NCBI GenBank assembly: GCA_045586045.1
Contig: JAZMZQ010000088.1
Location: 1-44,891, forward strand
Direction of reading: 5' to 3'
Length of the DNA stretch: 44,891 bases
Source of the DNA: Eubacteriales bacterium
Lineage (GTDB): Bacteria; Bacillota; Clostridia; Oscillospirales; QAKW01
In this document: positions 5,540 to 44,339 of the stretch, piece by piece
Layout of the letters: each line of letters opens with the position of its first letter
Position numbering within the stretch: the stretch's first letter is position 1
Position numbers and translations under genes: made by a program
The notes under the pieces: generated by a model
Told to the model about the DNA's origin: nothing
The model's input: only the letters and a program-made list of their open reading frames with translations
Databases searched by the model: none

Positions 5540-5555
5540 GGTTTATCGACCTTTC

Positions 5556-6065
5556 TTATTTTTTAGCGTCCCACATATTGTGGGCTTTGAGAAAAGCAAT
5601 AAATTTTTGCTCACTTTCCTTGTCAATGTGATCTACAAAGGTAAAGATAAAGGTGCGGATGTGATGGTATTTATTATCATTGTTTTGCTCGGTTGTACCA
5701 TCGCTGTTGATCTGAGTGTTGGATTTTAAGCCGATTTGCTTTTTGAGCAGTGCCACTATGAATTTATCGTCCTTCGGGGTGGTTAATTCGATGGTGCAGG
5801 ATTCGCCGTCTGCAAAATCAAGAGAAACGGTTACTATATCGTCGGTAGAATCTACATAATGCAGCATCGTTGCTTCACTGCCGATGTTGTAACGACCGGT
5901 GGTTTCCTTGCCATCCAGAAAAATAATTTGAGTAAACTTATCAACAGTCGTTACCTTGTTGCTCGGATCGTTGCCCAGAGCAACCTGATTACCCTTATGC
6001 TTTCCTTCGGTAACATTACCGTACTTGGTGGCAAGAGTAGCACCCAATTTTTCCATAAATCCCAT
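5556..6065 (-). CDS. Hypothetical protein, first gene of the A1/B1 operon (no counterpart in the second module)
   Basis: 169-aa ORF. AGAGG lies 6 nt upstream of ATG 6065. It ends 17 nt before A1. No recognisable motif. Confidence 0.6.
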   Translation of the reverse strand: MGFMEKLGATLATKYGNVTEGKHKGNQVALGNDPSNKVTTVDKFTQIIFLDGKETTGRYNIGSEATMLHYVDSTDDIVTVSLDFADGESCTIELTTPKDDKFIVALLKKQIGLKSNTQINSDGTTEQNNDNKYHHIRTFIFTFVDHIDKESEQKFIAFLKAHNMWDAKK

Positions 6066-6185
6066 TTTATACCTCTTTCTGCCGAGTCGGTCGGCGGTTG
6101 ATTTTTTGTATGAAAGAAACTACTTTCATATGATTAGTCTTATTTTATCAAAGGTATTTTGGAAAGTCTTATGCTGAGAGCATAG

Positions 6186-6214
6186 TTGAAAAAAATTGTC
6201 GATTATGGTATGCT
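6186..6214 (+). promoter_or_regulatory. Sigma-A-type promoter for the HTH / LRR / kinase operon
   Basis: TTGAAA (6186-6191), 17-nt spacer, TGgTATGCT extended -10 (6206-6214). This places the track's TTG start at 6186 inside the promoter. Confidence 0.5.
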
Positions 6215-6248
6215 GATAGCAAAGTATGTAAAAATAGTGAGGAAAAAG

Positions 6249-6671
6249 ATGAGTAAGGATACATCTAAGATTGTGGAAGAGCTGGGCCTTTGCTCGGATT
6301 TTAAGACATTTTATCATGAGAACAACGATTATATGATGCAAGAGAGTCTTTCTGATCTTTTGGCGCAGCTGATGGAGAAAAAAGGGCTGAAGAAGACAAA
6401 GGTCATCAAGGCGTCGGAGCTCTCGGAGGTCTATGCCTATCAGATCTTCTCGGGCCTTCGAGTTCCCGAGCGCAAAAAGCTTTTGAGCCTTGCGGTAGGG
6501 ATGGAACTGAATATTGAGGAGACCCAGAAGCTTTTGAGGTGCGCGGGGTTTGCTCCTTTATATGTAAAGCTGCCTTTCGACAGCATAATCCTTTACGGCC
6601 TTTGCAAAGGCCTTTCGGTGGTGGAGATCAACGATCTACTCTTTGAATATGAGCAGGAGACCTTAGGATGA
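6249..6671 (+). CDS. XRE-like HTH protein
   Basis: ATG 6249 follows GAGGAAAAAG. HTH-like core [49 protein letters not shown]. The stop overlaps the next start (ATGA). Confidence 0.65.
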
Positions 6672-7660
6672 GAGAATGTCCTTATTGCGGAGCAAAAATT
6701 GAAGAAAATGCCAAGATCTGCCTCTACTGCATGGAGGAGCTGGAGGAAAAGACCATCCTCGGCAGCAGAGTGGTCGCGCCATGGCGCAGATGGATCCTGC
6801 CGACTGTTTTTTCAATGGTAATCCTTTTGCAGCTGGCGGCGATTTTGATGCTGCTGCCCCATCGGGAGCAGATAGTTGCACCACCCTCGGAGGAGGCAAT
6901 GAAGCAGGAGGAAGAGGCGAAGGTGGATCAGGTTGTGGAAAAGGAAGATTCTGCGCCGGAAAAGGAAGAACCTGCGCCGGAAAAGGAAGAACAGGGCGAA
7001 GCGGAGAAGAGTGATGGGGATAAAGAAGAAGAGAAAAAGCCGACCTCTTCCGGCGGCAGTACCTCTAAGCCCGATCCCGATCCCGATCCCGAGCCCGAAC
7101 CTGAACCGGAGCCGGAACCGGAGCCGGAACCCGAACCCGAGCCTGAACCCGAACCCGAGCCTGAACCGGAGCCTGAACCGGAGCCCGAGCCGGCACCCTA
7201 TCAGGCACCGGAATATACATGGATAGAAATTGGAGATATTGTTGCTCCTGTATATCTGGATTTTCTTAGAAACAGTGTAGAGATTACGGGAGTGAAGACT
7301 CCCGCTTCCGATGGCATTTATCGGATTCCTGATACCATTGAGGGAAAGCGAGTATCCTCGATTGCAAGGGATGCCTTTAAGGGGGAGGGCATCGCCGAAA
7401 CGGTCAAGCAGATCTATCTGCCGGAGAACTTAAAGCAGGTTGGTGGCAACGCCTTTTCGGAATGTTATAATCTGACAGATCTTTATAAGACCGGCGATAC
7501 TCTTGCTATGGAATATAATGTTTTTCCGCCTCTGGTGCGCAGAACCGGACCCATCACCTTCCATTGTTCGCGTCTTTGCAACTATCCGGGGGATGGGACT
7601 CTCTATTGGCCGCGTGTAGAGCAACAATATAATGTTTTATATGAGGAGTGGAACGGATGA
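6668..7660 (+). CDS. Zinc-ribbon / single-TM / E,K-rich + (PD)3(PE)n linker / BspA-type leucine-rich-repeat protein
   Basis: [18 protein letters not shown] zinc ribbon; [24 protein letters not shown]; about 40 aa of strict P-D/P-E dipeptides. C-terminus [20 protein letters not shown]...[24 protein letters not shown] resembles BspA-like LRRs. Confidence 0.7.
7070..7192 (+). repeat. Hexanucleotide (CCN-GAN) tract, about 20 units, encoding the (PD)3(PE)n linker
   Basis: Direct reading: cccgat x3, then cccgag/cccgaa/cctgaa/ccggag variants in frame. Perfect at protein level, synonymously scrambled at DNA level. Confidence 0.9.
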
Positions 7661-8367
7661 TGGAGCAGATGGAAAGCAAGCTCAATACCCTTTGGGAGCA
7701 TTTTTCGAGGGTTTCCATCCTTTCCGATAAAAATGGCTGCAAGACCCTGCGAATCCGCCATCAGAAGACCGAGCGGGATTATATTTTGCATCAGCTTTCG
7801 GAGCCAAACCCTGTCTATGAGACCCTTTGCGCGCTTCGTCATCCTAATCTTCCGGCAGTCTATGAGATATTTTACTGCCAAGACGGCATGCTGGTTTTGG
7901 AGGAATATATTGAAGGTCTCAATGCGGCTCAGGTGGCCGAGAGCGGCCGCTACCGTAAGCGGGGCGCCAAAAAGGTGGCGGAAGGGATCTGCCGAGGGCT
8001 GATGGTTCTTCATGGAGAGGGCTTTATCCATCGGGATATCAAGCCGGAGAATGTGATGATCGGGAAGGATGGCAGGGTGGTGCTGATCGATTTCAACGCC
8101 GCCCGAAGAAAAAGCCAAAAATCCCGCGACACCGTCATTATGGGCACAGTTGGATTTGCCCCGCCGGAGCAGTTAGGGCTTTCCCAAAGCGATGAGCGGG
8201 TCGATATCTATGCGGTGGGTGTGCTGCTGAACATTTTACTCACCGGCCAATATCCCACCGAGGAGCTGGCGGGCGGGCGTCTTGGGCGGATCATTCGCCG
8301 CTGCACCAGAGTGCGGGCAAGGGAGCGCTATCAATCGGCAAGAAGGCTTTATTGGGCGTTGAAATAA
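7657..8367 (+). CDS. Stand-alone Hanks-type Ser/Thr protein kinase domain, atypical motifs
   Basis: [12 protein letters not shown] catalytic loop; LIDFNAA (DFN instead of DFG); GFAPPE for APE; no clear GxGxxG loop. ATG 7657 overlaps the upstream stop (ATGA), with GAGGAG 8 nt upstream. Confidence 0.75.
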
Positions 8368-16727: not shown

Positions 16728-19700
16728 TTAGCGGCGTGCTTTTTTGATTTGGAGAAATGTCATAATGCCGCCGCTTACAAACAAGAGTGCAAACCAAAGA
16801 GCAAGGTTTGAAGTATCGCCGGTTTGGGGCTGATGGGTTGCCTCATTCTGAGGTTCTTCGGGCTGAGGCTCTTCGGGCTTAGGCTCTTCAATTGAAGGTT
16901 CTTCAATCGAAGGCACTTCCACCTCGGGTTCTTCAGGTTGAGGCTCCTCGGGTTGAGGCTCCTCGGGCTGAGGCTCTTCGGGCTGAGGCTCTTCGGGCTC
17001 GGGCTCTTCGGGATTTGGAGCGGGAGTATAGTCGTAGATATTCTCAAAGGTGGCGATAATCTGCTCTGCTGCACCGCCGTTATTGGTGAGGGTGGCGATC
17101 AGCTGATTATTTTCTCCCATAGAGATCGCCACGGTAATGAGATATTCTGCCGTGCTATAGGTTACATGCTCTTTCCCCGTATTGATCTCGGAAAGCTTAT
17201 AGGAATAGGTCTTGCCCAGATCCTCTTCTCCGTAGCCGAGAGTAAAGACGGCCTTGCCCAATCCATCGGATTTCAAGGTGAATTTCTCATGGGTCTCGAT
17301 GTTTTCCAGCAGGAATTCAAAGCCTTCGGGGCCGATGGTCTCGCTGCCCTTCTGGGTGATCTTCTTTTCCACTTGGAAATGGACCTTGATATCTTCGGGC
17401 TTGGGGGTATAGATATTGGTAAAGAGAATCTCTGCGGCAGGATGCGCCTCGCCTACCTTTTGGATCAGGCGATTTTCTTCATAAAGCTTGCCGTTGAGAT
17501 CGTCCTGGACCTCTACCGTCAGGAGATATACGCTCTGATCGTTGGTAACCCGATCGGCGGTGGTAGCAGGATCTTCTGTTACCATAAACCGATAGGTGCC
17601 GGCTGTCGCGATGGTGATGGGGGTGAAACGGAAGCTGCCGTCTGCGGCATTGAAGGCCTCCAGAGGAGTAGCCCCATCGGGGATGGAAAAGCTCTCATCA
17701 ACCGCATAGAGGAAGAATTTGAATTCTTTTTCTCCCAAGGTGCGGCCCGTGAGCTTTTTGGTGCCGCCGATCTCCAGCGGGAGCGTATCGGTATGATAAT
17801 GATTGGAGAAGAGGATGGAGCTTGCTTCCGTGCGAACGATTTGAGGTTGCTCGTTTTCATCCAATTCAATCGTCTCCTTAAAGATCTTGGTGGTAAGATC
17901 CAAAGCGCCCAAAAGATTATCGGTGGCGGTAACGGTTACATGGAATTTGGCAGGATCATAGACCACGCCTCCTGCAGCGCCCGCCTCCTCCTCGATGAGG
18001 AAATAGCGCTCGCCTGCGCCGGTGAATTCAACTTCGGGGAAGGCGATATTGCCATGAAGATCATTGGCAACCTTTGCGCTGATGCCGCCGCTTATGGGGG
18101 TGGCAAAATCATTGGCGGTTTCCAAGATGGTGAATTGGAATTCTCCATCCCGAAGCACGCGGCCATGCAGTTCCTTGGTGCTGAAAAGGTTGGCGGCCTT
18201 TTTGGCGGGCTTATAGGAATTGGTGAAATGAATGGCGGTGGAGCCATCGCTGCTCTTTACAATCGATTGCTCCGTTGCAAGACCGCCGATGCCGTTATCC
18301 TTTACGACAACCTTTACAATATAATGGTTGGCCGCATAGGTGATGCCCCGATTTTCTGCACCCTTGATCTCTTCGATCTTATAATAATGCGTGCCTTCCT
18401 CGGTATAGGTGAGGGGGGCGAAGCGGATCGGAGCGGTGTCTCCGTTTGTGATGCCGCTTTCTGCTTCCAGAATGAAGGGATTCTGCAGGGGAGCACCGGT
18501 CTCATCGGCTACCTCGGTGAGGCGGAACTTGAATTCGCCGTTGAGAAGGGGCCGCCCATTGAGGGTTTTGGTCCCTTGGATGGTGGCAGCAGCGCTTCCG
18601 CTGATGGTATAGAGATTATTGAAATTCAGAGCATTGGGAGCGATCGTCCCTGCCGCACCGTAGGCGGTGATATGGGGATAGCCATCGGCGATCCGCAGGC
18701 GGGTGGTGCCGTCCACATCAATGAATTTCTCTACCAAGACGGTGATATGATAGTGATTCTCATCGGAGGTGATGCCCTCTTTTTCAAGATGCTCCTCTTT
18801 TACCGAGAAGTAATAGAGCCCCGGTGCAGCAAAGGTGATTTCATTAAAGGAAATGGCGTTGCCACGGTTGGAAACCTTTTGCAGCTCATCTTGAATAACA
18901 AAAGCGGGAGTGGTTTTATAAAGATAGAAGTTGAAGCTTCTGCCGCCCAAATCCTGCTGCCCGTTGAGGGTCTTGGTGCCGGAAAGGAGCAGAGTGGCTG
19001 CCACGTTGGGCTCATAGGTGTTGGTATGGGAAATCTCTTCCCCTGCATAGGGAGAGGATACGCCGTTGGCGGGGGTATAGGCGGTAAGCGCCTTGTTTTG
19101 GGCATCATCCCATTGGATTTGGAATTGGCCGATCCAATCCTCGTTATAATGCATTCCTACAACCCGATCTGCAGTGGGGGGTGCAATTTCGCGAAGATGA
19201 TAGGTCTTGCCGGATGTGCCGAGAGAATCCTTGGTTACAGGGATAGCCAAAGTAGCTTTGCCGTCTTTATCGGTCATGACATAGTAGGCAGGGGCGGTAG
19301 CGTTTTGGGATTCAAAGAGACCGAAGGTGATATCGGCAAGATGGTCGGTATGGGGATTGCCGGCGGCATCCGCAACAGCCTTGCTCAAATGGATATAGAC
19401 GATATCTTTGGTTACCATATTGGTGAAATTCTTAGTAATGGTAAGGCTGCCATCAAAGGTTGCTCCTTGCAGGGTGCGGATATCGGCGATTTCCAAAGCG
19501 CCGTCGGCATTTGCATCTGCAATCGTTACGGCAAATAAACCGTAAGAGCGGTCATAAGCCATATCGGGAATCCGATCTGCATCGGCGGGAATCTCTTCTG
19601 CCACGATGAAATAATAGGTGCCGGCCTTCTCAAAGGAAGCGCGGTTGATGGCGGGATCAGAGAAATCGAATTCATAATGGGGGCTGCTCTCGGTTACAAC

Positions 19701-22700
19701 AGCAGCATTGCCCAATGCTACGGGATCAGAATCCGAAAAATCGGAGATTTCATAAAGGCGAATGGAGAATTCTGCTCCTGCAGGCCATGCGCCCGCAACG
19801 GTTTTGGTGCCTTGCACCTTCAAATTAAGGGGGGCGGGAGCAGGCTCATAGTTATTGACCACATGGGCCTGATCGATCTCAGAAGCGCCGATGACCTTTG
19901 CCGTATCGGAATAGCGGATCGCGATATTCCGATAGCCTGCGGGCAGGGATCTCTCGCTTACCTCATAGGTTACCCCTTCGGGGATATTGCTGAAGGTGGC
20001 AGAATCGCCGTCTTTTAAGGTCAGGGTATAGGTGTTGCCGTTGGCAACGGCGCCGGCGGGAGGATTCATGCCGCCAAGATCTCCGCTGAAGGCAACATCA
20101 ATGGTAAATTCTTTTCCATTATGCTGGGCGTTGGGCGTAAAGCCTTCGGGATAATTGACATCCTTGCTGATCACCAGATCGCCGCTTCCCAAAGGAGCGT
20201 TGGTGAATTCAACGGGAGTGATGGTTTGATTCTGCAAGGTCAGAGAAGCAACGCTTCCGGTGATCGGGGCATTGCCCACCAATACCTTTGCGACCCGATA
20301 GCCGCTGCCGCTTTGCTCGCTTACGGTATAGTCGCCGGCGGTAAGGCCGATGATATAAACCGTCTCGCCGCCTTTGAGGCTGATCTCGCCGGTGGCAGGC
20401 AGGGCAGAGCGGCTTTCCTCTTGGCCGTTTGCATCCAAGCGAACCACCTGAGCACCGCTGTGATTGACATCGATCGTGAAGGTGAAGCTCTCGGTCGTCT
20501 CATACCCTTCGGCGAGGGTCTTGGTCAGCTTGATGCCGGTGGCGGGAGCAAGGGTCAGCTTACCATTGTTGCCCAGAGTAGAATAGGTGTAATAAATATC
20601 GCCGTCTTTTTCTACAAACGGATGATCGCTGTAGGGCATGGTTTGGGTATTTTCATCCCCTGCGCCGATGATCTTCTCGGTGCGTTCGTAATCATAATAG
20701 CGATGGATGACATCCTTGGGGATGACCCAGCCGCCCGAGAGGTTTTCATTGGCGACGACCGAATTCATGGCCTCTGCCGAGATGGGCTCCAGATGGTGGT
20801 CATCTGCATGGATTCTGAGCGTGCCGTTGGTCAGCTTTTCATATACCTGCAGCTGATGGTAATAGCCGCTGCCTTGGGGCTTTGCGCCGGTATAGGGGGT
20901 GCCGTCGGCTTTCAATACGGGGGTATTTTGGGTGTAATAATAGCGCTCGTTGCTGATGGAAGGCTCAAAGTGGCTGTAGGTATTAAGGGTATCCTCTGCC
21001 GCGGCCTTCCACTTATTGGTATAGAAGACATATTTGCCATCTTCCTTGGGATGATCGGCAGGCAGATGCTCAGCAAGATTCCAATCCTGCAGCTCCTCTC
21101 TCAGCTCTGCTTCATAGAGCAGGCGAACCGGCGCATAGGCATCGGTGCCGGTATCGGAGGCAAGCTGCAGATCCATCAGGCGGGTGATATTGCCATCGGA
21201 ATCCACCTCGACCTCCACCTCATAAGTCAGGGTGGGGATCAAGGAGGCGGGGATCTGCCAAGTGAGGATCTGATCGCCGGTGGCGATCTCGGTGGCGATC
21301 CGCACGGTCATATACATCATATCCGTATTGGAAACGCCGGAAAGAACGGTGGTATCGCCCAAGAAGCCATAGGACTTCATATAATGGGTAGCGTTTGCGG
21401 GATATTGATCGGCAGAAATCCCTTCATGCCAGAAATCAATAAAGTTGCCGCTTGCATCGGAGAACCAACCGATATAGTTGCTGAATTCGGAATCGGAGCG
21501 ATAGTAGAGCTGCTGATGATCATAAGCGGCTGATACCAGCGCTTGGGCCACAGGGGTGCCGGAAATGCCCAGCCGCTCTTTGACCGATTGGATCAGAGCG
21601 TCGCCCATGGCGGTAGGTTGGCTGGGAGTGCCCAGGGCATCATCGGAATCTCTCAGTGCGCTTGCCAATGCGGCGCCGGAGAACAAGCGATTGCCGACCA
21701 CCAAGCCCTTGACATCGGAAATCTCCATAAAACGGCCGATTTTATCCACAAAGGTCAGATAGCCGTCGTGGTTATGGTTGCCCTCCACATAGGTGGGATA
21801 ATAGCGGGATTGGAGGATGATTTCGTTGACGATGGCGGCAAAGGCCTGATTCATGGCATTATCATTATTTGCCGCAAAATAGCGATCGACATAATCCCGA
21901 TCTGCTTCGCTCAGGCGGGCAAGGCCGCTTGCCGCATTTTGGACATAGAGCCGCTCATTGGTGGCGGAGGCAGACCAGCCGTTTTGCCGATAAACCCGAT
22001 AGATGGGGATATTCTCGCCATCAAGGAAATCGGCCCAAAGATTATTCTGCACAGCGCTTGCATTGGTAGGATTCAATACGCTGAGCGCCTCGGGGCGATT
22101 CAGCGCGGTAGAGCCATAGCCCAAGGTATAGAGCAGGGCCGGCTTTTCATAGTGATCGGTGATCTGCTTTTTGGCAAAGGCGGTGGTCAGGGAGGTAACG
22201 AAGGCGATGGAATCCCGATGGCCGATGCCGTTGCGATCGGCGGTAGAGCCATCGTAATGCCACATGGTGCTCTGGCCCAGCTCCCAATTTCCGTTGCTTT
22301 GCTGAGCGCCGTCGTAGTCGGGGTTGGCAAGGGTGGGCTCGCCGTCGGTCATCAAAACCATGATGGGCAGGCGGTTGGTGCCGGCCTGCACCCCTTCTTT
22401 GACGACAGGATCTGCCTGAAGCAGAAGGTCCATGGCCTCATAGACACCGTCCTGCATAAAGGTGCCGGTAGATACATCGGTTTTAACGGTCGATACGAGG
22501 TCGCCTGCGGAATTGCGCACGCCGCTTGTTACCTGCAACGCATAATTCTCTACGCGATCATCGTTGCGGGTGGGATTGAGGAACTGCCCGTTTGCGGCGG
22601 GGGTATAGTTATCCAGCGGCATCAGAACGCGGGTGATTCCATCGGCGGCAGAGAAGGATTGGTTGGTATTGCCTGCATAAAGCACCACTGCCACACGATT

Positions 22701-23213
22701 GTTCTTATTCAATGCCAGCAGGGAAGAAATGGCGGTATTGGCGGAGGCTGCCAGCTCATCCAAAGCAGAGCCGCCTTGATCGTCGGTATAGCGCATGGAG
22801 CTGGAAAGATCCAGAATAAAGACGGTATCGGTAGGCAAAGTGGAATAGCCCTTGATCTGCTTGTTGGAAGCCATGGCCGAGAGGGCTACCAAGAAATTAT
22901 CGCCCTGATCGGCAATGGAGAAGGATTGCTGATTGTATTTGGCATCCAGCAGCTGCTGAGGGATTTCCTCAGGATCAAAGACCGATTTATCGGTCCAGAC
23001 ACTGCCTGCATATTCGGTGGAAAGCTCCACGTTATTGGGATCATTTTCCTTAACGCCGAAATAAAGCTTCCATTGATCCAAGGTATGGGGGTCTACCACC
23101 GTATGGTCTGCGCTTGCGGCGGCAACGCTCCAAGCGGGCAGGGAAGAGAAAAGCAAAATGAAGCAAAGCAGGATGCTCATGATGCGGGTGGAAAGATGGA
23201 TTTTTTTAGTCAT
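16728..23213 (-). CDS. 2161-aa cell-wall-anchored surface protein: signal peptide, vWA domain, multiple pilin-isopeptide / Cna-B-like repeats, PEEPQ linker, sortase signal variant
   Basis: Signal peptide MTKKIHLSTRIMSILLCFILLFSSLPAWSVAAASA; MIDAS VFILDLSSSM. At least six G/S-TK.L.GR.L..GEF.F.L units and Y.VSE..LPAGY motifs. C-terminus QPQTGD + hydrophobic helix + KKARR. Confidence 0.85.
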   Translation of the reverse strand: MTKKIHLSTRIMSILLCFILLFSSLPAWSVAAASADHTVVDPHTLDQWKLYFGVKENDPNNVELSTEYAGSVWTDKSVFDPEEIPQQLLDAKYNQQSFSIADQGDNFLVALSAMASNKQIKGYSTLPTDTVFILDLSSSMRYTDDQGGSALDELAASANTAISSLLALNKNNRVAVVLYAGNTNQSFSAADGITRVLMPLDNYTPAANGQFLNPTRNDDRVENYALQVTSGVRNSAGDLVSTVKTDVSTGTFMQDGVYEAMDLLLQADPVVKEGVQAGTNRLPIMVLMTDGEPTLANPDYDGAQQSNGNWELGQSTMWHYDGSTADRNGIGHRDSIAFVTSLTTAFAKKQITDHYEKPALLYTLGYGSTALNRPEALSVLNPTNASAVQNNLWADFLDGENIPIYRVYRQNGWSASATNERLYVQNAASGLARLSEADRDYVDRYFAANNDNAMNQAFAAIVNEIILQSRYYPTYVEGNHNHDGYLTFVDKIGRFMEISDVKGLVVGNRLFSGAALASALRDSDDALGTPSQPTAMGDALIQSVKERLGISGTPVAQALVSAAYDHQQLYYRSDSEFSNYIGWFSDASGNFIDFWHEGISADQYPANATHYMKSYGFLGDTTVLSGVSNTDMMYMTVRIATEIATGDQILTWQIPASLIPTLTYEVEVEVDSDGNITRLMDLQLASDTGTDAYAPVRLLYEAELREELQDWNLAEHLPADHPKEDGKYVFYTNKWKAAAEDTLNTYSHFEPSISNERYYYTQNTPVLKADGTPYTGAKPQGSGYYHQLQVYEKLTNGTLRIHADDHHLEPISAEAMNSVVANENLSGGWVIPKDVIHRYYDYERTEKIIGAGDENTQTMPYSDHPFVEKDGDIYYTYSTLGNNGKLTLAPATGIKLTKTLAEGYETTESFTFTIDVNHSGAQVVRLDANGQEESRSALPATGEISLKGGETVYIIGLTAGDYTVSEQSGSGYRVAKVLVGNAPITGSVASLTLQNQTITPVEFTNAPLGSGDLVISKDVNYPEGFTPNAQHNGKEFTIDVAFSGDLGGMNPPAGAVANGNTYTLTLKDGDSATFSNIPEGVTYEVSERSLPAGYRNIAIRYSDTAKVIGASEIDQAHVVNNYEPAPAPLNLKVQGTKTVAGAWPAGAEFSIRLYEISDFSDSDPVALGNAAVVTESSPHYEFDFSDPAINRASFEKAGTYYFIVAEEIPADADRIPDMAYDRSYGLFAVTIADANADGALEIADIRTLQGATFDGSLTITKNFTNMVTKDIVYIHLSKAVADAAGNPHTDHLADITFGLFESQNATAPAYYVMTDKDGKATLAIPVTKDSLGTSGKTYHLREIAPPTADRVVGMHYNEDWIGQFQIQWDDAQNKALTAYTPANGVSSPYAGEEISHTNTYEPNVAATLLLSGTKTLNGQQDLGGRSFNFYLYKTTPAFVIQDELQKVSNRGNAISFNEITFAAPGLYYFSVKEEHLEKEGITSDENHYHITVLVEKFIDVDGTTRLRIADGYPHITAYGAAGTIAPNALNFNNLYTISGSAAATIQGTKTLNGRPLLNGEFKFRLTEVADETGAPLQNPFILEAESGITNGDTAPIRFAPLTYTEEGTHYYKIEEIKGAENRGITYAANHYIVKVVVKDNGIGGLATEQSIVKSSDGSTAIHFTNSYKPAKKAANLFSTKELHGRVLRDGEFQFTILETANDFATPISGGISAKVANDLHGNIAFPEVEFTGAGERYFLIEEEAGAAGGVVYDPAKFHVTVTATDNLLGALDLTTKIFKETIELDENEQPQIVRTEASSILFSNHYHTDTLPLEIGGTKKLTGRTLGEKEFKFFLYAVDESFSIPDGATPLEAFNAADGSFRFTPITIATAGTYRFMVTEDPATTADRVTNDQSVYLLTVEVQDDLNGKLYEENRLIQKVGEAHPAAEILFTNIYTPKPEDIKVHFQVEKKITQKGSETIGPEGFEFLLENIETHEKFTLKSDGLGKAVFTLGYGEEDLGKTYSYKLSEINTGKEHVTYSTAEYLITVAISMGENNQLIATLTNNGGAAEQIIATFENIYDYTPAPNPEEPEPEEPQPEEPQPEEPQPEEPQPEEPEVEVPSIEEPSIEEPKPEEPQPEEPQNEATHQPQTGDTSNLALWFALLFVSGGIMTFLQIKKARR
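16848..17012 (-). repeat. 15-nt tandem repeats encoding the (PEEPQ)n stalk
   Basis: gaggctc[c/t]tcggg[c/t]t units on the plus strand, about 10 copies with variants. Confidence 0.85.
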
Positions 23214-37622: not shown

Positions 37623-38444
37623 TCAAATCTCCTTCTTCCAAAGCTGCAGCGCATCGCGGATGATCCAGTTGCTCTTTTCCAGCAAATCGGTGGCAGCATC
37701 CTCATCATAACCGGTGATCTGGCTGACAATGCGGATCACCCGACCCCGAAGCTTGATGTTGGAGGGCTTGAGGTTGATCATCATGTTTTCATAAACTTTT
37801 CCTGTTTTTACCATAGCGCATGTAGTAAGCGTATTAAGGACGATTTTTTGCGCAGTACCGGCCTTTAAGCGGGTTGAGCCTGTCAGAACCTCTGCACCCG
37901 TGTCTGTAAAAATCTGAATATCCGCTGCATTCAGTATTTTTGTATCGGGGTTACAGCTTACCCCTACGGTTACAGCACCGATGGATTTCGCAGTTTCTAT
38001 TGCACCTACCACATATGCCGCATTCCCTGCCGCAGATATTCCAACCACAACGTCCACAGATCTAACACCGTGTTCGGCGATTGCTTCACAGCCCTTTTCA
38101 TATTTGTCTTCTTCGTTTTCTCCGGCGAGGAACATTCTTTCGTTTCCGCCTGCGATGATACCTTGAACCTGATCATAGGGTACGCCAAAAGTCGGCGGGC
38201 ACTCCGCAGCATCAAGAACACCGAGTCTGCCTGATGTTCCTGCGCCGACATAGAAAAGACGTCCGCCATTTTCAAAGGCGGCGGCAATCGCGTCAACCGC
38301 CTGAGCAATTGCAGAGGCAGCGTCCTCAACGGCTTTTACTGCATCGTAATTCGCCGTGATAACAAGTTTTGCCATTTCCTCTGAACTCATTTTATCCATA
38401 CGCATACTGGCGGGATTTCTCGTTTCCGTTTTTGATAGACTCAT
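37623..38444 (-). CDS. murQ: N-acetylmuramic acid 6-phosphate etherase
   Basis: TETRNPASMRMDKMSSEEM..., GRLFYVGAGTSGRLGVLDAAECPPTFG SIS-domain core, and C-terminal KLKAGTAQK-type block. The start overlaps the upstream stop by 1 nt. Confidence 0.85.
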   Translation of the reverse strand: MSLSKTETRNPASMRMDKMSSEEMAKLVITANYDAVKAVEDAASAIAQAVDAIAAAFENGGRLFYVGAGTSGRLGVLDAAECPPTFGVPYDQVQGIIAGGNERMFLAGENEEDKYEKGCEAIAEHGVRSVDVVVGISAAGNAAYVVGAIETAKSIGAVTVGVSCNPDTKILNAADIQIFTDTGAEVLTGSTRLKAGTAQKIVLNTLTTCAMVKTGKVYENMMINLKPSNIKLRGRVIRIVSQITGYDEDAATDLLEKSNWIIRDALQLWKKEI

Positions 38445-39598
38445 TACTCTATTCCTCCGTAAGTTTTTTTGAAATTCCCGTAAAATTCATCAGGTATATC
38501 ACATGCCGTTATGGAACATGCCTTCTTACAGGCTCCGTATATCGGCGGCAGTGTATTTACAAGTAATTTTACATCGCTGTACTGTCCGATGAATTCAGTC
38601 ATGATTTCTCCGTAGTGTTCAAAGAGACCTCCGCTCGCAATAGCGACAGGGCTTGCATTGCAAAGTTTAACACCCGCATTTAAGAGCTCTGCCAATGCTT
38701 TTGTATTTCTCAAAATGATCTGTACGGCTTTTTTATCTCCTTGTTTGAAAGCATCAAAAGCAATTGATGCAAAACTTGCTATATAGGGCTTCCCTTCACT
38801 ATAAATCGTATTGATATGCTCCCACACGGTGTCAACATTCAGTTTCCGGCACAGCATTCTGCTCATCAACGAACGGTTCTCCCTCATATCTTCTTCGTGC
38901 AACGCTTCCCGAATCACGTCCCTGCCAAAATCATAAGCGCTGCCGGCACCATCAAGCAGATATCCCCATCCGCCAAGCCTTTTGTATGAATCACCGTCTT
39001 TGACGAATACAACCGATCCTGTCCCGCTGATGACAGCCATATCGGCTCTTTCATCAAGTGCAAAAAGATTAAAGGAATCATTTTTTATTTGTATATCAAT
39101 CTGTTGATATCGTCTTTTTAATTCAGCAGATAACCGCTTTGCATAATCTCCCGTAGAGATTCCCGCAATTCCACAGAATACGCTTCTGATAGAATGAAAT
39201 TCCGTAAGAATATCGCCAATCCCATCGACAAGTATGGAAAGCATTGCAGAATACCCGATATCGTTCGGGTTACATCCGCTTTTTACAAGGCGTTTTAGTA
39301 CATATCCTTCTGAGGAGACAAGTACAAACTCCGTTTTTGTTCCCCCTCCGTCAATTCCCAAAAACAGATCATCGCTTTGCTTGCGAAGAAGGTCATCCAC
39401 CAATACACCAAAGTATGCGGCTATATTGATCAGATTTTCAAGTTCGGGCGGAGCCACCCCGCGCTCCCAATTGGATACTGCCTGAAAGCTTACTCCTAAA
39501 ATATCGGCAAATTCATTTTGCGTTAATCCTTTTTGTTTGCGTAATTCCCTAATGCTTGTCCCAAGCGTTTCTATATTAAGCAAGATCCGTTCCTCCAT
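38444..39598 (-). CDS. XRE HTH domain fused to a BadF/BadG/BcrA/BcrD-type ATPase (GlcNAc/MurNAc kinase-like)
   Basis: N-terminus IRELRKQKGLTQNEFADILGVSFQAVSNWERG. Then FLGIDGGGTKTEFVLV, ISGTGSV and GGWGYLLDGAGSAY kinase blocks. Confidence 0.75.
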   Translation of the reverse strand: MEERILLNIETLGTSIRELRKQKGLTQNEFADILGVSFQAVSNWERGVAPPELENLINIAAYFGVLVDDLLRKQSDDLFLGIDGGGTKTEFVLVSSEGYVLKRLVKSGCNPNDIGYSAMLSILVDGIGDILTEFHSIRSVFCGIAGISTGDYAKRLSAELKRRYQQIDIQIKNDSFNLFALDERADMAVISGTGSVVFVKDGDSYKRLGGWGYLLDGAGSAYDFGRDVIREALHEEDMRENRSLMSRMLCRKLNVDTVWEHINTIYSEGKPYIASFASIAFDAFKQGDKKAVQIILRNTKALAELLNAGVKLCNASPVAIASGGLFEHYGEIMTEFIGQYSDVKLLVNTLPPIYGACKKACSITACDIPDEFYGNFKKTYGGIE

Positions 39599-39733: not shown

Positions 39734-39752
39734 AATGAAGATATGGTATATC

Positions 39753-39897
39753 TTATGAAGCCGAGAGCATGTTTTCGATAAAGATGCCGTAGCCGCGGGT
39801 GGGGTCGGAGATCAAGACATGGGTTACTGCGCCGACGATTTTGCCATCCTGCAAAATCGGGCTGCCGCTCACGAGTGTGTCAATATAGGACCAACAT
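39753..39897 (-). pseudogene. spoIVB 3'-end remnant C plus shared junction
   Basis: 39753-39871 is about 93% identical by hand to 42964-43082 and reads [38 protein letters not shown]. 39872-39897 is the junction shared with remnant D. Confidence 0.85.
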
Positions 39898-39936
39898 ATT
39901 TTTATATCATTCATTTTCAATTTATCCTTTAAACGC

Positions 39937-39969
39937 AAAGAAATCGCACCAATTAGGCGCGATTTCTTT
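39937..39969 (-). terminator. Hairpin after B2
   Basis: AAAGAAATCGCACC aatta GGCGCGATTTCTTT (with G-U pairs), 30 nt after the stop at 40000. Confidence 0.55.
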
Positions 39970-39999
39970 ATTTTATATGGAATTATATGAAATTGTGGC

Positions 40000-41010
40000 T
40001 TACTTAGGTCTGTATGCCGGGCAGGAGTAACATGCAAAACCACGATTAGAACATTTACAAGCACAGGATCTGGCTCTAATTCCATTAATGCGTTCTCTTT
40101 CTCTACGGCTCTCTTTTTCAGCTTCTGCAGCGTCTTTTGCCATTTGTTGCTGTTGTTGCTCCATTTGCCTATTGTGACGCCTCATTTCTTCCATTTGCTG
40201 TTCCATAGCCTCTTGGCGAAGCCGCTCTTCTTCTCGCCGTTGTTCCTCTTCTCGTTCTTTGCGGTCGTCTTCAATGGCTAAATTAAGCGCATCTTTCAAA
40301 TTGTCGGCTCTACCGCTTTGCAAAGAAGAAAGTATATTTTTCGTCAAATAATGATATTCACTTGATAAAATGTCAAGGCCGGTTATTTGTTGCTCAATTC
40401 CCACAAGTTGCTGCTTTGCGTTATTTATATTTGCTTGGTATTCTTCTCTTGCAGCGACAAAATCATTGTGACAAGAATTCTGGAGTTGAATAAATTTTGC
40501 CATGCTGTCTTTTGCTTGGGCTTTTTCTTTTTCAAATCGACTGAGGTTTTGTCTAAAACTGTCCATCGTCTGATTGAACTTTTCAACAGATTCATCATAG
40601 ATTTTCTTTTTCTCAAGATAAATGCGTTTTAAGCCTTTACATAAGTATAGCAAAACCGCTGTGCCGACAATTCCAACAGCACCAAGACTTGATAAAAAAG
40701 AAGCTTTTGTTATCAAGTAAAGAAGAATCGATATTATTCCACCGCCGGCGAACAGAATAAGTATTTTTTTCAATTTCTCATATTTAAGTTCATTTGGCAA
40801 ATAAATGTCTTTATCGATCGGAAAAAGCGGCATGATGGAGTAGACAGAGGGCACCATTGGACCATCGCCTCTAACACGACGTATTTCATTGAGTCTTTTC
40901 TTTGCGTCATCCAATTCGCCGTATTGAATGCGATATTCCAAATCACTTTTTTTATCCAACAGCTCTTCAAGTTTTTTTAATTTATTAATCACTTCTTTAT
41001 TATTTAACAT
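40000..41010 (-). CDS. Unknown 2-TM coiled-coil protein with an E/R/Q-rich helix and a Cys-rich tail ('B2')
   Basis: TM hairpin [18 protein letters not shown] / [16 protein letters not shown]. Blocks [14 protein letters not shown] and [12 protein letters not shown]; tail [18 protein letters not shown]. The start overlaps the A2 end by 11 nt. Confidence 0.75.
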
Positions 41011-41593
41011 CTTTCCGTTCTCTCCAGTTTTGTAAAATAAAAAGGTATGCTATTTCTGCTTGAATTTCGCGCAAAGATTCATCGATATCGTATGCTGTGG
41101 TATTAATAATTTCGCCGCCTAAGTTTTCGATGAATTTTTTGCCCAACTCTTCTGTTTTGACTTTGTATTTTGCGTCTCCCAAAGATGGATCATTATCAAA
41201 AAGGTGCTCATCATATATCCAAGAGTCATTATCATAGGGATTAGCAATGCCATGCAAAATTGATAGTAGTATACAGTACACACCCTCGGTATTATCCGCT
41301 TCTTGAACCTTGCTGATATACGCAATAAAAGGGTTTTTGTTGGCATCAATAAGGGCAGGATATGACGAATACTCCGTATTTGATGTGCTGATACTGTTTG
41401 ATAGCAAAAATGCCATTTTAAACAAGAATGTTTTTATGTTGTTTTGCGAAGTTCGCCTTAGGTTTTTTTCGGTGATGCGTAAAAGATACGAATAAAGGAA
41501 AACCGAACGTTCTTCAAGATTTTTGCATTCATCGAACGCTTGTTTTCCGGATGACGATAAAAACCATGCGGCATCATTAGTAATAAGTTCCAT
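41000..41593 (-). CDS. Unknown soluble protein ('A2')
   Basis: ATG 41593 with AAGGAG 8 nt upstream (the ORF opens at 41692). Blocks LEERSVFLYSYL, YPALIDANKNPFIAYI and YCILLSILHGIANP....WIYD match A1. Confidence 0.75.
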   Translation of the reverse strand: MELITNDAAWFLSSSGKQAFDECKNLEERSVFLYSYLLRITEKNLRRTSQNNIKTFLFKMAFLLSNSISTSNTEYSSYPALIDANKNPFIAYISKVQEADNTEGVYCILLSILHGIANPYDNDSWIYDEHLFDNDPSLGDAKYKVKTEELGKKFIENLGGEIINTTAYDIDESLREIQAEIAYLFILQNWRERKDVK

Positions 41594-41708
41594 TTGGTAT
41601 TTCTCCTTTAAATTTTTTGCAGATTTCTTATCTTTAACACAATTATAGGGCAAAAATATGTTAATGTCAAGAAAAATGCAAATCTTTAGCATATTTTGGA
41701 GGATAATT

Positions 41709-41951
41709 GTGAAGATCTATGATTATAAAGGAAAGAAAAATATCTGCGGTGAGCGGGTACACGAAGCGCGGTGTCGGTTGCGGTTAACCCAAAGCAATCT
41801 GGCGGCGCAGTTGCAGGTAGCAGGAATCATTATTGAGCGGGACAGTGTTTCCCGCATTGAAATCGGGACACGCTTTGTGGCAGATTACGAAATCCGCGCA
41901 TTGTCCGAAATCTTAAAGGTCCCGGTGGATTGGTTGCTTGGGATCGAATAA
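41709..41951 (+). CDS. Small XRE-family HTH regulator
   Basis: GTG 41709 lies 7 nt after GGAGG. GERVHEARCRLRLTQSNLAAQLQVAGIIIERDSVSRIEIGTRFVADYEIRALSEIL is a typical Cro/CI-type HTH. Confidence 0.75.
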   Translation: MKIYDYKGKKNICGERVHEARCRLRLTQSNLAAQLQVAGIIIERDSVSRIEIGTRFVADYEIRALSEILKVPVDWLLGIE

Positions 41952-41954
41952 ATG

Positions 41955-41981
41955 AAAAAGCAGACCCAAGGGTCTGCTTTT
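41955..41981. terminator. Bidirectional terminator between the XRE gene and spoIVB remnant B
   Basis: AAAAGCAGACC caag GGTCTGCTTTT. Confidence 0.75.
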
Positions 41982-41982
41982 A

Positions 41983-42135
41983 CTATACTGCGCTGGCCAG
42001 CATATTTTCGATGAAGATGCCGTAGCCGGCGGTGGGGTCGGAGACCAAGACATGGGTTACTGCGCCGACGATTTTGCCGTTTTGCAAAATCGGGCTGCCG
42101 CTCATGCCCTGCACAATGCCGCCGGTAGCGGTACA
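41983..42135 (-). pseudogene. spoIVB 3'-end remnant B
   Basis: About 88% identical by hand to 42961-43110. Reads [48 protein letters not shown], closed upstream by an in-frame TGA. Confidence 0.85.
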
Positions 42136-42140
42136 TCAAA

Positions 42141-42728
42141 TTATTTTAGCTCTTTGCGAAAAAGATCAAGTAAATAATCGTTTACTCCGTTTGCTGCCTG
42201 AATGGTGGCGGTCATTAGGTCAGATGGGTCGATGTTGGAAAATTCAAATTGATAGCCGTTATAATCAATTAGTTTTGAAACAAAAATACGTTGGGTGCGG
42301 CCGTTTCCCTCCCGAAAGGGATGCAATAGATTGGTGGTGCAGTAAAAATCCACCAATTCATCAATAAATTTCGGTTTGGAAAGACCCTTGAAATAATTCA
42401 TCTTTTTAAGGCGGTCAAAGCAAGCGTAGCATAAGTTTTCTAATTGATCGGCAGGGCAAAAGGCGGTTCCTTTTTTGGAAATATCCACTGTGCGGAGCTC
42501 GCCGGCCCAACCATAAAGATCTTCAAAAAGAAATCGGTGGATGGATTTGTAATAATCAAAATCCAAAGGCGGTTTGGCAGGCTGACTTTCCAATAGGGTT
42601 GTCTTGGCGTGGGTGATGGTGGCTTCAAGGGATGCCAACTGCTCTTCATTTCGCACATCAAACTTATTAATAAGGCAGGTGGTTCCCTCATAACAGTTTG
42701 CAGAAATCGGATCGATACTGTAGCCCAT
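42141..42728 (-). CDS. Fic/Fido-domain toxin (class I, FicT/VbhT-like)
   Basis: Canonical HPFREGNGRTQR motif. 195 aa. ATG overlaps the antitoxin stop (TAATG). Confidence 0.85.
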   Translation of the reverse strand: MGYSIDPISANCYEGTTCLINKFDVRNEEQLASLEATITHAKTTLLESQPAKPPLDFDYYKSIHRFLFEDLYGWAGELRTVDISKKGTAFCPADQLENLCYACFDRLKKMNYFKGLSKPKFIDELVDFYCTTNLLHPFREGNGRTQRIFVSKLIDYNGYQFEFSNIDPSDLMTATIQAANGVNDYLLDLFRKELK

Positions 42729-42901
42729 TATGCGGTAACACCTGCCTTTTCTTTTGCCATGGTGAGATATTCTTCCATGGTGATCTCTTTATTTAAGAGC
42801 CTGCGGCACCATTCTTTGGTTTGTTCATCCACCGAAAAACCCTCCATCTCTAAAGAGAAGGTGGCATTTTTGATGCAACGTTCAATTTGCTTTTCGCTCA
42901 T
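42728..42901 (-). CDS. VbhA/FicA-type antitoxin
   Basis: 57 aa. SLEMEG matches the inhibitory [S/T]xxxE[G/N] helix motif. ATG 42901 preferred over GTG 42910. Confidence 0.75.
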   Translation of the reverse strand: MSEKQIERCIKNATFSLEMEGFSVDEQTKEWCRRLLNKEITMEEYLTMAKEKAGVTA

Positions 42902-42960
42902 GCAAAACACCTGCCTTTATGTAGAGTATACCACACGTATAGGTGTGGTGCAACTCTTTT

Positions 42961-44094
42961 TTATTCTGCTGCGGAGAGCATATTCTCAATAAAAATGCCG
43001 TAGCCGCGGGTGGGGTCGCTGATCAAGACGTGGGTTACCGCGCCGACGATTTTGCCATCCTGCAAAATCGGGCTGCCGCTCATGCCCTGCACAATGCCGC
43101 CCGTTGCGGCCAGAAGATCGGGGTCGGTAACCTCGATGGAGAGATTTTTATATTCCGATAAGTTATTATTGACTTTGGTTATACGAATTGTATAGGATTT
43201 CGGGGTATCTCCCTCTAAGGTGCAGAGGATTTGGGCCTCTCCCTCTTGGATTTCGTCCTTGAGCGCGATGGGGTAGGCTACCCCTTCAAAAGAGCGTTTG
43301 GCTTTGCCGAAAAGGCCTGCACCGCAGTTTTTCTCTACCGAGGCCAAGGTCTCTTTTTCCAAGGCGCCCAAAAGCTCGCCGGGGGCATCCTTTTCTCCCG
43401 CTTTGATGCCGGTAATGCGTGCATCTACCATGGTGCCGCTATGGACCGGCATGGTCAGGCCGGTATCTACGTCGGAGATGGAATGGCCAAGGCCCGCAAG
43501 GGAGCCGGTTTCGGGGTCGTAATAGGTGAGGGTGCCGAGGCCGGCGGTGCTATCCCGCACCCAAAGGCCGATGGAATAATTTCCGTCCCGCAGGAAGGGA
43601 GTAACCCAAACAGTTTGTTCTCGTTGGTTGCGGAGAATCTCTGCCCGCTGCTTTTTGCCGCGGCAGCGCTGCACCTGCTCTCTGAGCTCTTGATTGGAGC
43701 GAACCTCAACACCGTTATAGGAGAGGATAATATCGCCCACCTGAATACCGGCATCCACGCCGGCGCTTTCCTTTTCTGCATCGACTACAATGACACCCTT
43801 GGTATAAAGCTTGATCCCAAAAGGGGTCCCCAGTGCCACCAATTGCTTTTCTGCAATTTCCCGAATGGTGGCGTCTTTAATAGGAAGCAGGCCGAAAAGC
43901 TTGATCTTGGCGGTATAGGAATCCTCCAAAGCATCTTTTTGATCGGCCTCAAAGGTATAAAAAACAGAGGATTCCGGCAGTTGGTCGGGATAACAATGAT
44001 AGGTAGAGGGAATCTTTTGGATTCCATATCCTAAAAGAGCTGCCATCAGCCCGATCCCGACGATCAGACGAATGGCTTTGAACCATTTTTTCAT
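42961..44094 (-). CDS. spoIVB: SpoIVB peptidase (S55, PDZ + serine protease)
   Basis: TM start MKKWFKAIRLIVGIGLMAALLG, PDZ region (AGIQVGDIILSYNGVEV), LGHSISD and [24 protein letters not shown] catalytic Ser block. ATG 44094; the track's 44328 start runs through a repeat region. Confidence 0.9.
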   Translation of the reverse strand: MKKWFKAIRLIVGIGLMAALLGYGIQKIPSTYHCYPDQLPESSVFYTFEADQKDALEDSYTAKIKLFGLLPIKDATIREIAEKQLVALGTPFGIKLYTKGVIVVDAEKESAGVDAGIQVGDIILSYNGVEVRSNQELREQVQRCRGKKQRAEILRNQREQTVWVTPFLRDGNYSIGLWVRDSTAGLGTLTYYDPETGSLAGLGHSISDVDTGLTMPVHSGTMVDARITGIKAGEKDAPGELLGALEKETLASVEKNCGAGLFGKAKRSFEGVAYPIALKDEIQEGEAQILCTLEGDTPKSYTIRITKVNNNLSEYKNLSIEVTDPDLLAATGGIVQGMSGSPILQDGKIVGAVTHVLISDPTRGYGIFIENMLSAAE

Positions 44095-44184
44095 CTTAAA
44101 AAACAACCTTTCGACGATTATTTTTTGCGTCGATGAAAAAAAGATACCAAGCAAAAAGAGTGAAAATTTCCAATTTTTTCTTTT

Positions 44185-44279
44185 CAACACAAATGATTTG
44201 TGTTGAAAAGAAGAGGCTTGGGAGTACAAATGATTTGTGTTGAAAAGAAAAGGCTTGGGAATACAAATGATTTGTGTTG
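44185..44279. repeat. 37-bp tandem repeat (about 2.5 units), each unit carrying an ACAAAT-g-ATTTGT palindrome, upstream of spoIVB
   Basis: ACAAATGATTTGTGTTG starts at 44189, 44226 and 44263. The first copy extends to the 21-bp palindrome CAACACAAATGATTTGTGTTG. Confidence 0.9.
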
Positions 44280-44292
44280 GATGAGGTAAAAG

Positions 44293-44339
44293 AAAAAAGG
44301 AGCGGTAAAAAATCCTGAGATTTTTCACCGCTCCTTTTC
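44293..44339 (-). terminator. Terminator of the upstream hypothetical gene
   Basis: GGAGCGGTAAAAAAT cctgag ATTTTTCACCGCTCC (one mismatch) flanked by A/T runs, directly after the stop at 44341. Confidence 0.75.

Follow-up and report, generated by a model that had tools for sequence, protein, structure and literature searches.

In XpaC (PF10112, 'Halogen_Hydrol'), two N-terminal helices form a membrane hairpin, and the cytoplasmic region behind it is helical. In Bacillus subtilis, YdjI requires the membrane proteins YdjG and YdjH for its membrane localisation and for the recruitment of PspA (PMC8581546), and a role in sensing membrane stress has been proposed for the YdjI complex (bioRxiv 10.64898/2026.02.06.704340). 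The YdjI/SamI-like class of SPFH proteins connects membrane-stress factors to the membrane in this species (PMC8581546; bioRxiv 10.64898/2026.02.06.704340). Here we analysed a contig of 44,891 nucleotides from a Eubacteriales bacterium (JAZMZQ010000088.1; its whole length is called the window below), and in it an intact low-GC cassette at 39929-41978, in which the gene of an 80-aa Cro/CI-type protein, H, faces A2 (197 aa) and B2 (336 aa), whose translation is coupled. By gene content and homology, the cassette derives by reduction from a conserved module of six to seven genes encoding a kinase (K), a sensor (Z), two helix-turn-helix (HTH) proteins and an X-A-B operon. The A-B pair is, on the same comparison, the conserved core of this larger, undescribed module of gut Oscillospirales.

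Like the PspA-YdjGHI (SamGHI) system, the A-B operon combines a membrane-integral anchor with soluble partners, and zinc-ribbon components occur in both. Unlike it, the cassette and the kinase-type modules contain no SPFH or PspA gene, and A and B have neither a PspA/ESCRT-III fold nor a Pfam match. B resembles the SLATT effectors in having a hairpin of two transmembrane helices with cytoplasmic flanking helices, as a candidate membrane-acting output under a sensor, and it differs from them in its approximately 210 residues of conserved cytoplasmic helices and its dedicated partner A. Compared with XpaC, B is far longer, and it has extra motifs and a Cys tail. The cassette and its borders contain the following features.

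40000-41010, minus strand: B2, 336 aa, from the list of open reading frames (ORFs)
41000-41593, minus strand: A2, 197 aa, from an internal Met start of ORF 41000-41692
41709-41951, plus strand: H, 80 aa, GTG start
39931-39967, minus strand: terminator-like hairpin 3' of B2, read from the sequence, with a 12-bp stem AGAAATCGCGCC/GGTGCGATTTCT, loop TAAT and a T-rich tail
41956-41981, no strand assigned: GC-rich hairpin, a perfect palindrome, where H meets spoIVB copy 2
39746-39898, minus strand: spoIVB 3'-end remnant, copy 1, bordering the cassette on the B2 side
41979-42131, minus strand: spoIVB 3'-end remnant, copy 2, which moves with the cassette; the junction is also present in the metagenome contig L012
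42957-43109, minus strand: spoIVB copy 3, the 3' end of the intact gene (mechanical ORF 42961-44328)

The ORF list confirmed the gene placement given in the preliminary description, with H separated by 115 bp from the overlapping minus-strand genes. The reading frames of A2 and B2 share 11 nt, and GGAGAG lies ahead of the B2 start, GGAG before the A2 ATG at 41593 and GGAGG before the GTG start of H. The 197-aa model of A2 is correct, because a consensus promoter (41670-41642, minus strand) falls within the mechanical N-terminal extension. The hairpin behind B2 was missing from the output of a consensus scan; it sits in the block conserved with L012, whose homology stops at 39929. The hairpin at 41956-41981 is probably the spoIVB terminator, brought along with copy 2 and able to work in both directions.

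The GC content was 0.38-0.40 over 39-42 kb, compared with approximately 0.5 in the rest of the window. The last 115-150 nt or so of spoIVB occur in three direct copies (a 153-nt repeat family), and in the alignment of these copies the homology starts at GAGCGGCAGCCCG. The H-A-B genes lie between copies 1 and 2, and a Fic gene with its 60-aa partner lies between copies 2 and 3, so that the AT-rich cassette in a spoIVB hot spot that was described before is confirmed. On L012, an independent metagenome contig, the same H-A-B unit was found with 87% DNA identity to window positions 39929-42103. The match takes in spoIVB copy 2 and the hairpin behind B2, and unrelated genes lie beyond it. The transferable block thus comprises H, A and B together with the terminator and the 3' end of spoIVB. 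No recombinase is present, no tRNA or Rfam element was found in the window, and a literature search found no relevant account of spoIVB integration hot spots. A role in sporulation, suggested by the adjacency to spoIVB, was dropped, since the other loci occupy unrelated sites.

Between the window and L012, the ratio of nonsynonymous to synonymous substitution rates (dN/dS) was lowest in H (0.05), followed by A (0.09) and B (0.26), and a third fragment of the cassette lineage (P0027) was 68% identical. All three genes are under purifying selection. The genes X, H2, Z and K of the larger module are missing from the cassette, and gene remnants lie at its borders, as would be expected if it were a decaying, non-functional remnant of that module caught between spoIVB remnants. 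This explanation is hardly credible in view of three intact ORFs with a consensus promoter, ribosome binding sites and a terminator, of the selection measured against an independent copy with identical layout and junction, and of the related fragment P0027. We conclude that the cassette is a functional three-gene unit.

The larger module itself is present in the window as a second locus.

3867-4991, minus strand: B1, 374 aa, paralog of B2
4988-5539, minus strand: A1, 183 aa, paralog of A2; its reading frame shares 4 nt with that of B1
5556-6065, minus strand: X1, 169 aa, conserved third gene of the X-A-B operon, without a family match and not present in the 40-42 kb cassette
6249-6671, plus strand: H2, 140 aa, divergent XRE-like HTH protein
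6668-7660, plus strand: Z, 330 aa, with an N-terminal zinc ribbon, one transmembrane helix, a Pro/Glu-rich (PEPEPE-type) linker and an LRR_5-like ectodomain
7648-8367, plus strand: K, 239 aa, soluble Hanks-type Ser/Thr kinase (Pkinase, E 1.7e-31), with a 13-nt overlap with Z

A1 and A2 were 39% identical (E 5e-48), and B1 and B2 were 29% identical (E 4e-50). The second A-B pair reported at 3867-6671 is therefore a real paralogous pair; however, X lies between A1 and the HTH gene, and that gene encodes not a counterpart of H but a different protein, H2, followed by a zinc-ribbon membrane protein and a kinase. Thus the pair, which had been taken for a compact module of the hot spot, is in the cassette a stripped-down form of the kinase, sensor, HTH and X-A-B module. 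The locus at 3867-8367 has six genes and lacks H and T (the latter a small Cys-rich ORF), and most other copies carry an 85-aa H. The window contains a single H homolog, the cassette gene at 41709-41951, and the cassette might supply in trans the H-type repressor that is missing from the larger module.

In the recurring layout, one strand carries K (about 235 aa), Z (about 300-400 aa), H2 (140 aa) and H (85 aa), and the opposite strand carries X (165-186 aa), A, B and sometimes T. In five further loci from species genomes, K was present in four, Z and H2 in all, H in three and X in four, and A stood next to B in all five. Wherever a locus was long enough to show both genes, B directly followed A. 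The most conserved component was H2, with 73-77% identity between loci and a mean column identity of 82%. Conservation of A (approximately 40-50%) and B (approximately 30%) was far under that of H2, and Z was also less conserved, its ectodomain varying from locus to locus. Close relatives are few: among 5.8 billion clusters, there were nine for A and three for B, the latter rising to 18 with a profile. Ten loci were found among 185,579 species (one genome each), and all ten came from metagenome-assembled genomes of the Oscillospirales type (Faecousia, Acutalibacteraceae and 'Eubacteriales').

The split between Z and K can be compared with receptor kinases of the PrkC/StkP type of Firmicutes, which have a transmembrane helix and an outer domain, both supplied here by Z. 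Unlike in that type, kinase and sensor are encoded by separate overlapping genes, and there are no PASTA domains.

Several variations of the layout were observed. A small ORF of 63-79 aa often lies 3' of B (L006 8934-9161, L011 5116-5343, L014 5307-5540, L038 11161-11355, L040 11246-11437 and L028 3575-3790); it was Cys-rich in all three copies read (L006, L011 and L028), and none follows B1 or B2 in the window. T had no match in Pfam and PADLOC. At L023 (5000-9621), H2-Z-K and A-B share one direction and there is no X. At L025 (3688-9625), there are two H2 paralogs, and an extra 230-aa gene, to which no family was assigned, lies between X and A.

The proteins encoded by the A-B pair were analysed by hydropathy and by AlphaFold models. 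A2 has an isoelectric point (pI) of 4.8 and no hydrophobic segment, and its model was all-helical, with a predicted local distance difference test (pLDDT) score of 75 and a predicted template-modelling score (pTM) of 0.75. In B2 (pI 8.9; 5.5-7.6 in the other B proteins), hydropathy located a hydrophobic hairpin at approximately 80-127 with K/R on either side, and the model (pLDDT 87) had two helices there. In total the model placed helices at 4-47, 71-101, 104-157, 159-212, 217-232 and 238-309, with a disordered Cys tail. From the N-terminus, B2 consists of a helix, a conserved Pro-rich motif, the hairpin of two transmembrane helices, a helical bundle, the motif GRADxxKxALNxAI, a charged helix of about 70 residues with an invariant RHNxxME, and the Cys-rich tail. 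Residues 238-309 are 68% E/D/R/K/Q. These data bear out the preliminary description, which had called A2 soluble and acidic and B2 a protein with a K/R-flanked hairpin, a charged helix and a Cys tail; the sequence motif blocks it listed for A and B are all present in the alignments. The predicted topology, based on hydropathy and a monomer model, supports a B protein that is membrane-anchored with both ends in the cytoplasm, and a soluble partner A.

The tail of B2 contains C316, C318, C320, C327 and C330. Three Cys columns (C316, C318 and C330 of B2) were invariant in 17 sequences, and the pattern CxxCx5Cx12C was found in most. The tail, modelled at pLDDT < 50, gave a weak match to the ribosomal L32 zinc ribbon profile (E 0.13). 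The Cys cluster of B2 may bind metal.

The libraries Pfam, NCBIfam, PADLOC and PHROGs were scanned with A1, A2, B1, B2, X and H2. None of them gave a usable match for A1, A2, B1, B2 or X; in PADLOC, nothing was found for A1, A2, B1 and X up to E 1, and only noise (E >= 0.02) for B2. Sequence-profile searches of the PDB with A, B, X and H2 gave no match below E 0.05, H2 being weakly similar to the XRE protein 3op9 (E 0.3). With the A2 model, Foldseek found nothing below E 1.7 in the PDB and no match in BFVD. With the B2 model, none of the 50 PDB matches listed was below E 0.19, and they were generic long-helix proteins such as MakA, PcsB, SH3BP5 and SMC arms. Alpha pore-forming toxins of the ClyA type (MakA, AhlB and SmhB) were the top matches of B2, but with E values of 0.19-1.4 and TM-scores of 0.13-0.16; this resemblance is generic long-helix similarity.

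Individual candidates were also considered. In a member-by-member Pfam scan for recurrent weak matches, covering 17 B proteins and ten divergent, tier-2 (more distant) or fusion proteins, XpaC was matched by only three of the 17, below threshold (best E 0.021) and not by B2 or B1, and by none of the ten, among them six other core members, three tier-2 B-like proteins and the P0156 fusion; these XpaC matches were therefore discarded as evidence. There was no SLATT profile match for B2 or B1, and DUF4231 was matched by one of the 17 members (E 0.12). TelA (PF05816) and PspA (PF04012) were matched by neither A nor B in Pfam or NCBIfam, and no ESCRT-III-like fold was among the 50 PDB matches listed by Foldseek. 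The SLATT-, TelA- or PspA-like relation raised at first is not upheld by these profile tests, while the statement that neither protein belongs to a characterised family held in every search. Across the libraries and structures searched, these results reveal no described counterpart, be it family or system, for A, B, X or the whole module, and they are for this reason far from the known kinds.

Distant relatives of A and B were informative about the relation between the two proteins. A profile hidden Markov model search with A gave 183 clusters, 42 of them below 1e-30. In P0149 and P0156, an A-domain is followed in one polypeptide by a transmembrane hairpin and a B-type C-terminus; P0149 was 53% identical to B2 across 64 residues centred on the GRADSFKEALNLAIEE motif. 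In P0177, the order is the reverse, a B-type part (hhalign probability 92%, 228 columns) preceding the A-domain. Other distant A-domains are joined to one transmembrane helix and outer domains, including SH3_3. The A-B and B-A fusions argue for a physical partnership of A and B, which the preliminary description had assumed, and the two probably work as one complex. Since A is cytosolic in both fusion orders, B should have an even number of transmembrane segments, with both ends on A's side.

The same fusions bear on the suggestion that the pair is a toxin-antitoxin or addiction unit, with B as a membrane toxin, A as its acidic upstream antitoxin and H as the transcriptional controller that stabilises the island. 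A small acidic protein (pI 4.8) is indeed encoded upstream of, and overlapping with, a larger basic one (pI 8.9), an XRE regulator adjoins, and the next cassette in the hot spot is a Fic toxin pair. However, single polypeptides in both orders are hard to square with a toxin and a labile antitoxin, the pair occurs mostly within a six- to seven-gene module with a kinase and a sensor, the other B proteins are not basic, and A and B matched no toxin-antitoxin family in Pfam, NCBIfam or PADLOC. We consider this explanation very improbable.

A tier-2 sub-family consists of an A-like protein of approximately 200 aa followed by an overlapping B-like gene. The B-like proteins keep the GRAD/KEA(L/I)N and H(N/E)xxMER motifs and have no Cys tail. 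Most of the A-like proteins of about 200 aa (P0077-P0175) have a conserved N-terminal MGFFxSPxKLxxLLKN, absent from the A proteins of the window; to judge from its residues, this extension may be a membrane-binding amphipathic helix. The broad tier-2 alignment (32 sequences) was too diverse for a pattern search. The X proteins also start with a similar motif, MGFMEKL, with no homology to the 'MGFF' extension detected, and the small 'MGFF...' tier-2 proteins were rejected as X homologs (hhalign probability < 3%).

In two tier-2 loci (L029 146-7396 and L030 1242-8158), the A-like/B-like pair is part of an apparent operon with the order zinc-ribbon/TPR membrane protein, SPFH protein (Band_7_1), 242-aa membrane protein, A-like, B-like and a 141-154-aa MGFFDKVK protein. 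By eye, the C-terminal outer part of the first protein in L029 and L030 resembles the A-fused domain of P0083 and P0087. As in the YdjGHI system, these distant A-B pairs (L029, L030-35) stand directly downstream of a YdjI/SamI-like SPFH protein, here with multiple zinc ribbons (Band_7_1, E 4e-25). The link to YdjGHI is one of neighbourhood, in a few related loci; the tier-2 contexts were drawn from few related metagenomes. No Band_7_1 protein was found in the two loci of the window or in the kinase-type modules.

The region between H and A2 was analysed for signals that could control both transcription units.

41594-41708, no strand assigned: divergent promoter/operator region, the 115-bp gap between A2 and H
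41670-41665 (-35) and 41647-41642 (-10), minus strand: A-B promoter of the sigma-70 type, TTGACA, 17 nt, TATAAT, 12/12 consensus
41634-41662, plus strand: candidate promoter of H
41616-41644 and 41654-41682: arms of an inverted repeat, 29 nt
41634-41644 (plus), 41654-41664 (minus) and 41686-41696 (plus): three TTAACATATTT-like sites

Both promoters are overlapped by the inverted repeats and by the three TTAACATATTT-like sites, all of which are kept in L012. There, 70 bp in the middle of the intergenic region are near-invariant despite a dS of 1.7 for H. The clustering of the sites is descriptive only and is no independent test, because the motif was derived from the same region. The intergenic region also contains a 15-nt direct repeat with 52-nt spacing. 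The direct repeat first proposed as an operator exists (41618-41630 and 41677-41688) but is less conserved than the inverted repeats and the TTAACATATTT-like sites, which are the better candidates. The full modules have conserved palindromes of their own in the H-X intergenic region, and the 52-nt site spacing recurs in three of five loci.

H matched HTH_31 (E 1.4e-4, score 22.5) and HTH_3 (E 1.6e-3, score 18.9), and these matches place it among the HTH_3/HTH_31-type XRE regulators, though below the gathering scores of 27 and 23; its homolog in L001 scored above the HTH_3 cut-off (26.4). H also matched DicA (NF007257, 8e-5), repressor families of PHROGs (down to 1e-7), the C-protein and RmrA HTH models of PADLOC and, weakly, a HipB/Y4mF-like HTH model of NCBIfam (E 1e-3). 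It was 33-35% identical to the 85-aa H of the full modules (E approximately 1e-13). As in the Cro/CI and C-protein controllers, H is a single-domain XRE HTH protein of 80 aa next to divergent, overlapping promoters inside inverted repeats; unlike those controllers, it scores under the Pfam cut-offs, and its binding is predicted from sequence only. The XRE type of H and its divergent arrangement with A-B, as first described, are thus confirmed. Most likely, H is a repressor of both promoters, predicted to bind the overlapping conserved inverted repeats, and the idea of a membrane protein with a cytosolic partner under repressor control is supported.

The neighbourhoods of the module were surveyed at about 20 loci. 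The flanks of at least ten distinct module-bearing loci consisted mostly of housekeeping genes, for example guaA-like, metH, pyk, trk and feo. In the five genome loci, the ten nearest neighbours were metabolic genes, transport genes or genes without a Pfam match, with no integrase and no known defence gene, and 35 flanking proteins gave only generic matches in PADLOC (ThiF to E1-E2 models, and an ABC permease). Mobile or conflict-related neighbours were found in three lineages, namely the window with its Fic hot spot, L001 and L002, which adjoin Tn7-like TnsB/TniB/TniQ genes, and L002 and L006-8 with a resolvase. In addition, L016 and L017 lie near a WYL protein. Three profiles found no relatives of A and B in IMG/VR, no relatives of A were found in GenBank phages or PLSDB, and the cassette DNA had no match among the PLSDB plasmids. 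A and B were always adjacent and HTH genes recurred, but the loci did not fall repeatedly into defence islands or mobile elements, a negative result that carries little weight given the small sample.

These neighbourhoods are central to the explanation by anti-phage defence, in which B would be a membrane-disrupting effector of abortive infection, restrained or triggered by A and silenced by H, with Z and K sensing phage at the cell surface. The distribution of the module is accessory and patchy. The low-GC cassette lies in a hot spot of tandem insertions, where the neighbouring Fic pair has a PADLOC match to PDC-S04, a candidate defence family (7e-67), and the Tn7-like, resolvase and WYL neighbours would also suit such cargo. 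The ectodomain of Z differs among loci. K shares a Hanks kinase domain with PD-T4-6 and Stk2 and matched PD-T4-6 models down to 4e-33, and H resembles C-protein and RmrA HTH models. On the other hand, A, B and X match no PADLOC model, the HTH and Fic matches concern generic domains, the match of K is to the generic kinase core, and K is absent from the 40-42 kb cassette. The flanking proteins of the five genome loci gave generic matches only, the other flanks were metabolic or transport genes, relatives were lacking in the phage and plasmid collections searched, and the known hosts are limited to few Oscillospirales lineages. On balance, a defence function is rather unlikely, although it is the strongest alternative to the envelope-signalling model given below. 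The proposal that the cassette is defence or addiction cargo was thus not borne out, given the mostly housekeeping flanks, the lack of phage and plasmid copies and the fusions in both orders.

Because A, B and X gave no informative match, a role for the A-B pair can be drawn here only from architecture and neighbourhood. The reading we prefer, a serious possibility though short of a probable one, is that A and B form an inducible complex at the inner face of the membrane, descended from an envelope-signalling module. According to this model, H would switch off both divergent promoters through the conserved inverted repeats. Upon expression, the coupled synthesis of A2 and B2 would give one complex at the inner face of the membrane, where B2 would be anchored by its helical hairpin with both ends inside and would project the helical bundle, the charged helix with RHNxxME and the Cys cluster, and A would bind the cytoplasmic part of B. 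The complex would act as a membrane-proximal scaffold or as the output of a response to envelope or surface signals; it is read in this way because the pair is the core of a module in which Z, K and H2 stand opposite X-A-B. In the full module, Z and K would drive the envelope or surface-signal pathway, and in the cassette the kinase arm would be uncoupled and replaced by plain repressor control.

Several points weigh against this model. Neither homology nor fold gives a biochemical handle on A, B or X, and the confidence of the A2 model is only moderate (pLDDT 75). The SPFH link comes from a small number of related loci in metagenomes; L028, the third tier-2 locus, has no SPFH gene. The family is rare and patchy (10 loci among 185,579 species genomes), the cassette has low GC and occupies an insertion hot spot whose Fic pair matches a candidate defence family, and two lineages adjoin Tn7-like or resolvase genes; rarity, low GC, hot spot and neighbours of this kind would also fit conflict cargo. 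A broader reading, possible but somewhat doubtful, is that X-A-B with H2, Z and K is an undescribed transmembrane signalling or conflict system, in which a split receptor kinase with a rapidly changing outer domain would act on two proteins of new fold, one a coiled-coil protein anchored by a hairpin and the other its partner in the cytosol, and of which the cassette would be a free-standing, repressor-gated version.

Some further features of the window were observed. The 195-aa Fic-domain protein and the 60-aa partner whose gene overlaps it (42141-42910) make up a small island of their own, with spoIVB copy 2 on one side and copy 3 on the other. At 44186-44279, there are three tandem 37-nt repeats, each with the palindrome ACAAATGATTTGT. 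The spoIVB gene probably starts near 44094, at Met79 of the mechanical ORF, and the repeats lie approximately 90-185 nt upstream of this start; they may be binding sites of a regulator. Just past the cassette, at 38444-39598, a 384-aa ORF appears to encode an N-terminal XRE-type HTH and a BadF/ROK-like sugar-kinase/ATPase (translation judged by eye). A very large ORF of 2161 aa lies at 16728-23213 on the minus strand.

A, B and X are conserved and selected families with no relative in the curated libraries searched; no solved structure matches the models of A2 and B2, and the PDB contains no sequence relative of X. Their well-defined module also encodes a kinase, two DNA-binding proteins and a surface sensor that varies, and it comes from abundant, little-studied gut Clostridia. 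The cassette is its easiest experimental entry, because it is the smallest natural version of the module. If the module were a lineage-specific housekeeping scaffold, the interest would be more modest. If it were a signalling or defence system, it would represent a new membrane-associated output mechanism, and A, which occurs in fusions with receptors that face the cell wall, would be a new adaptor domain of the cytoplasm.

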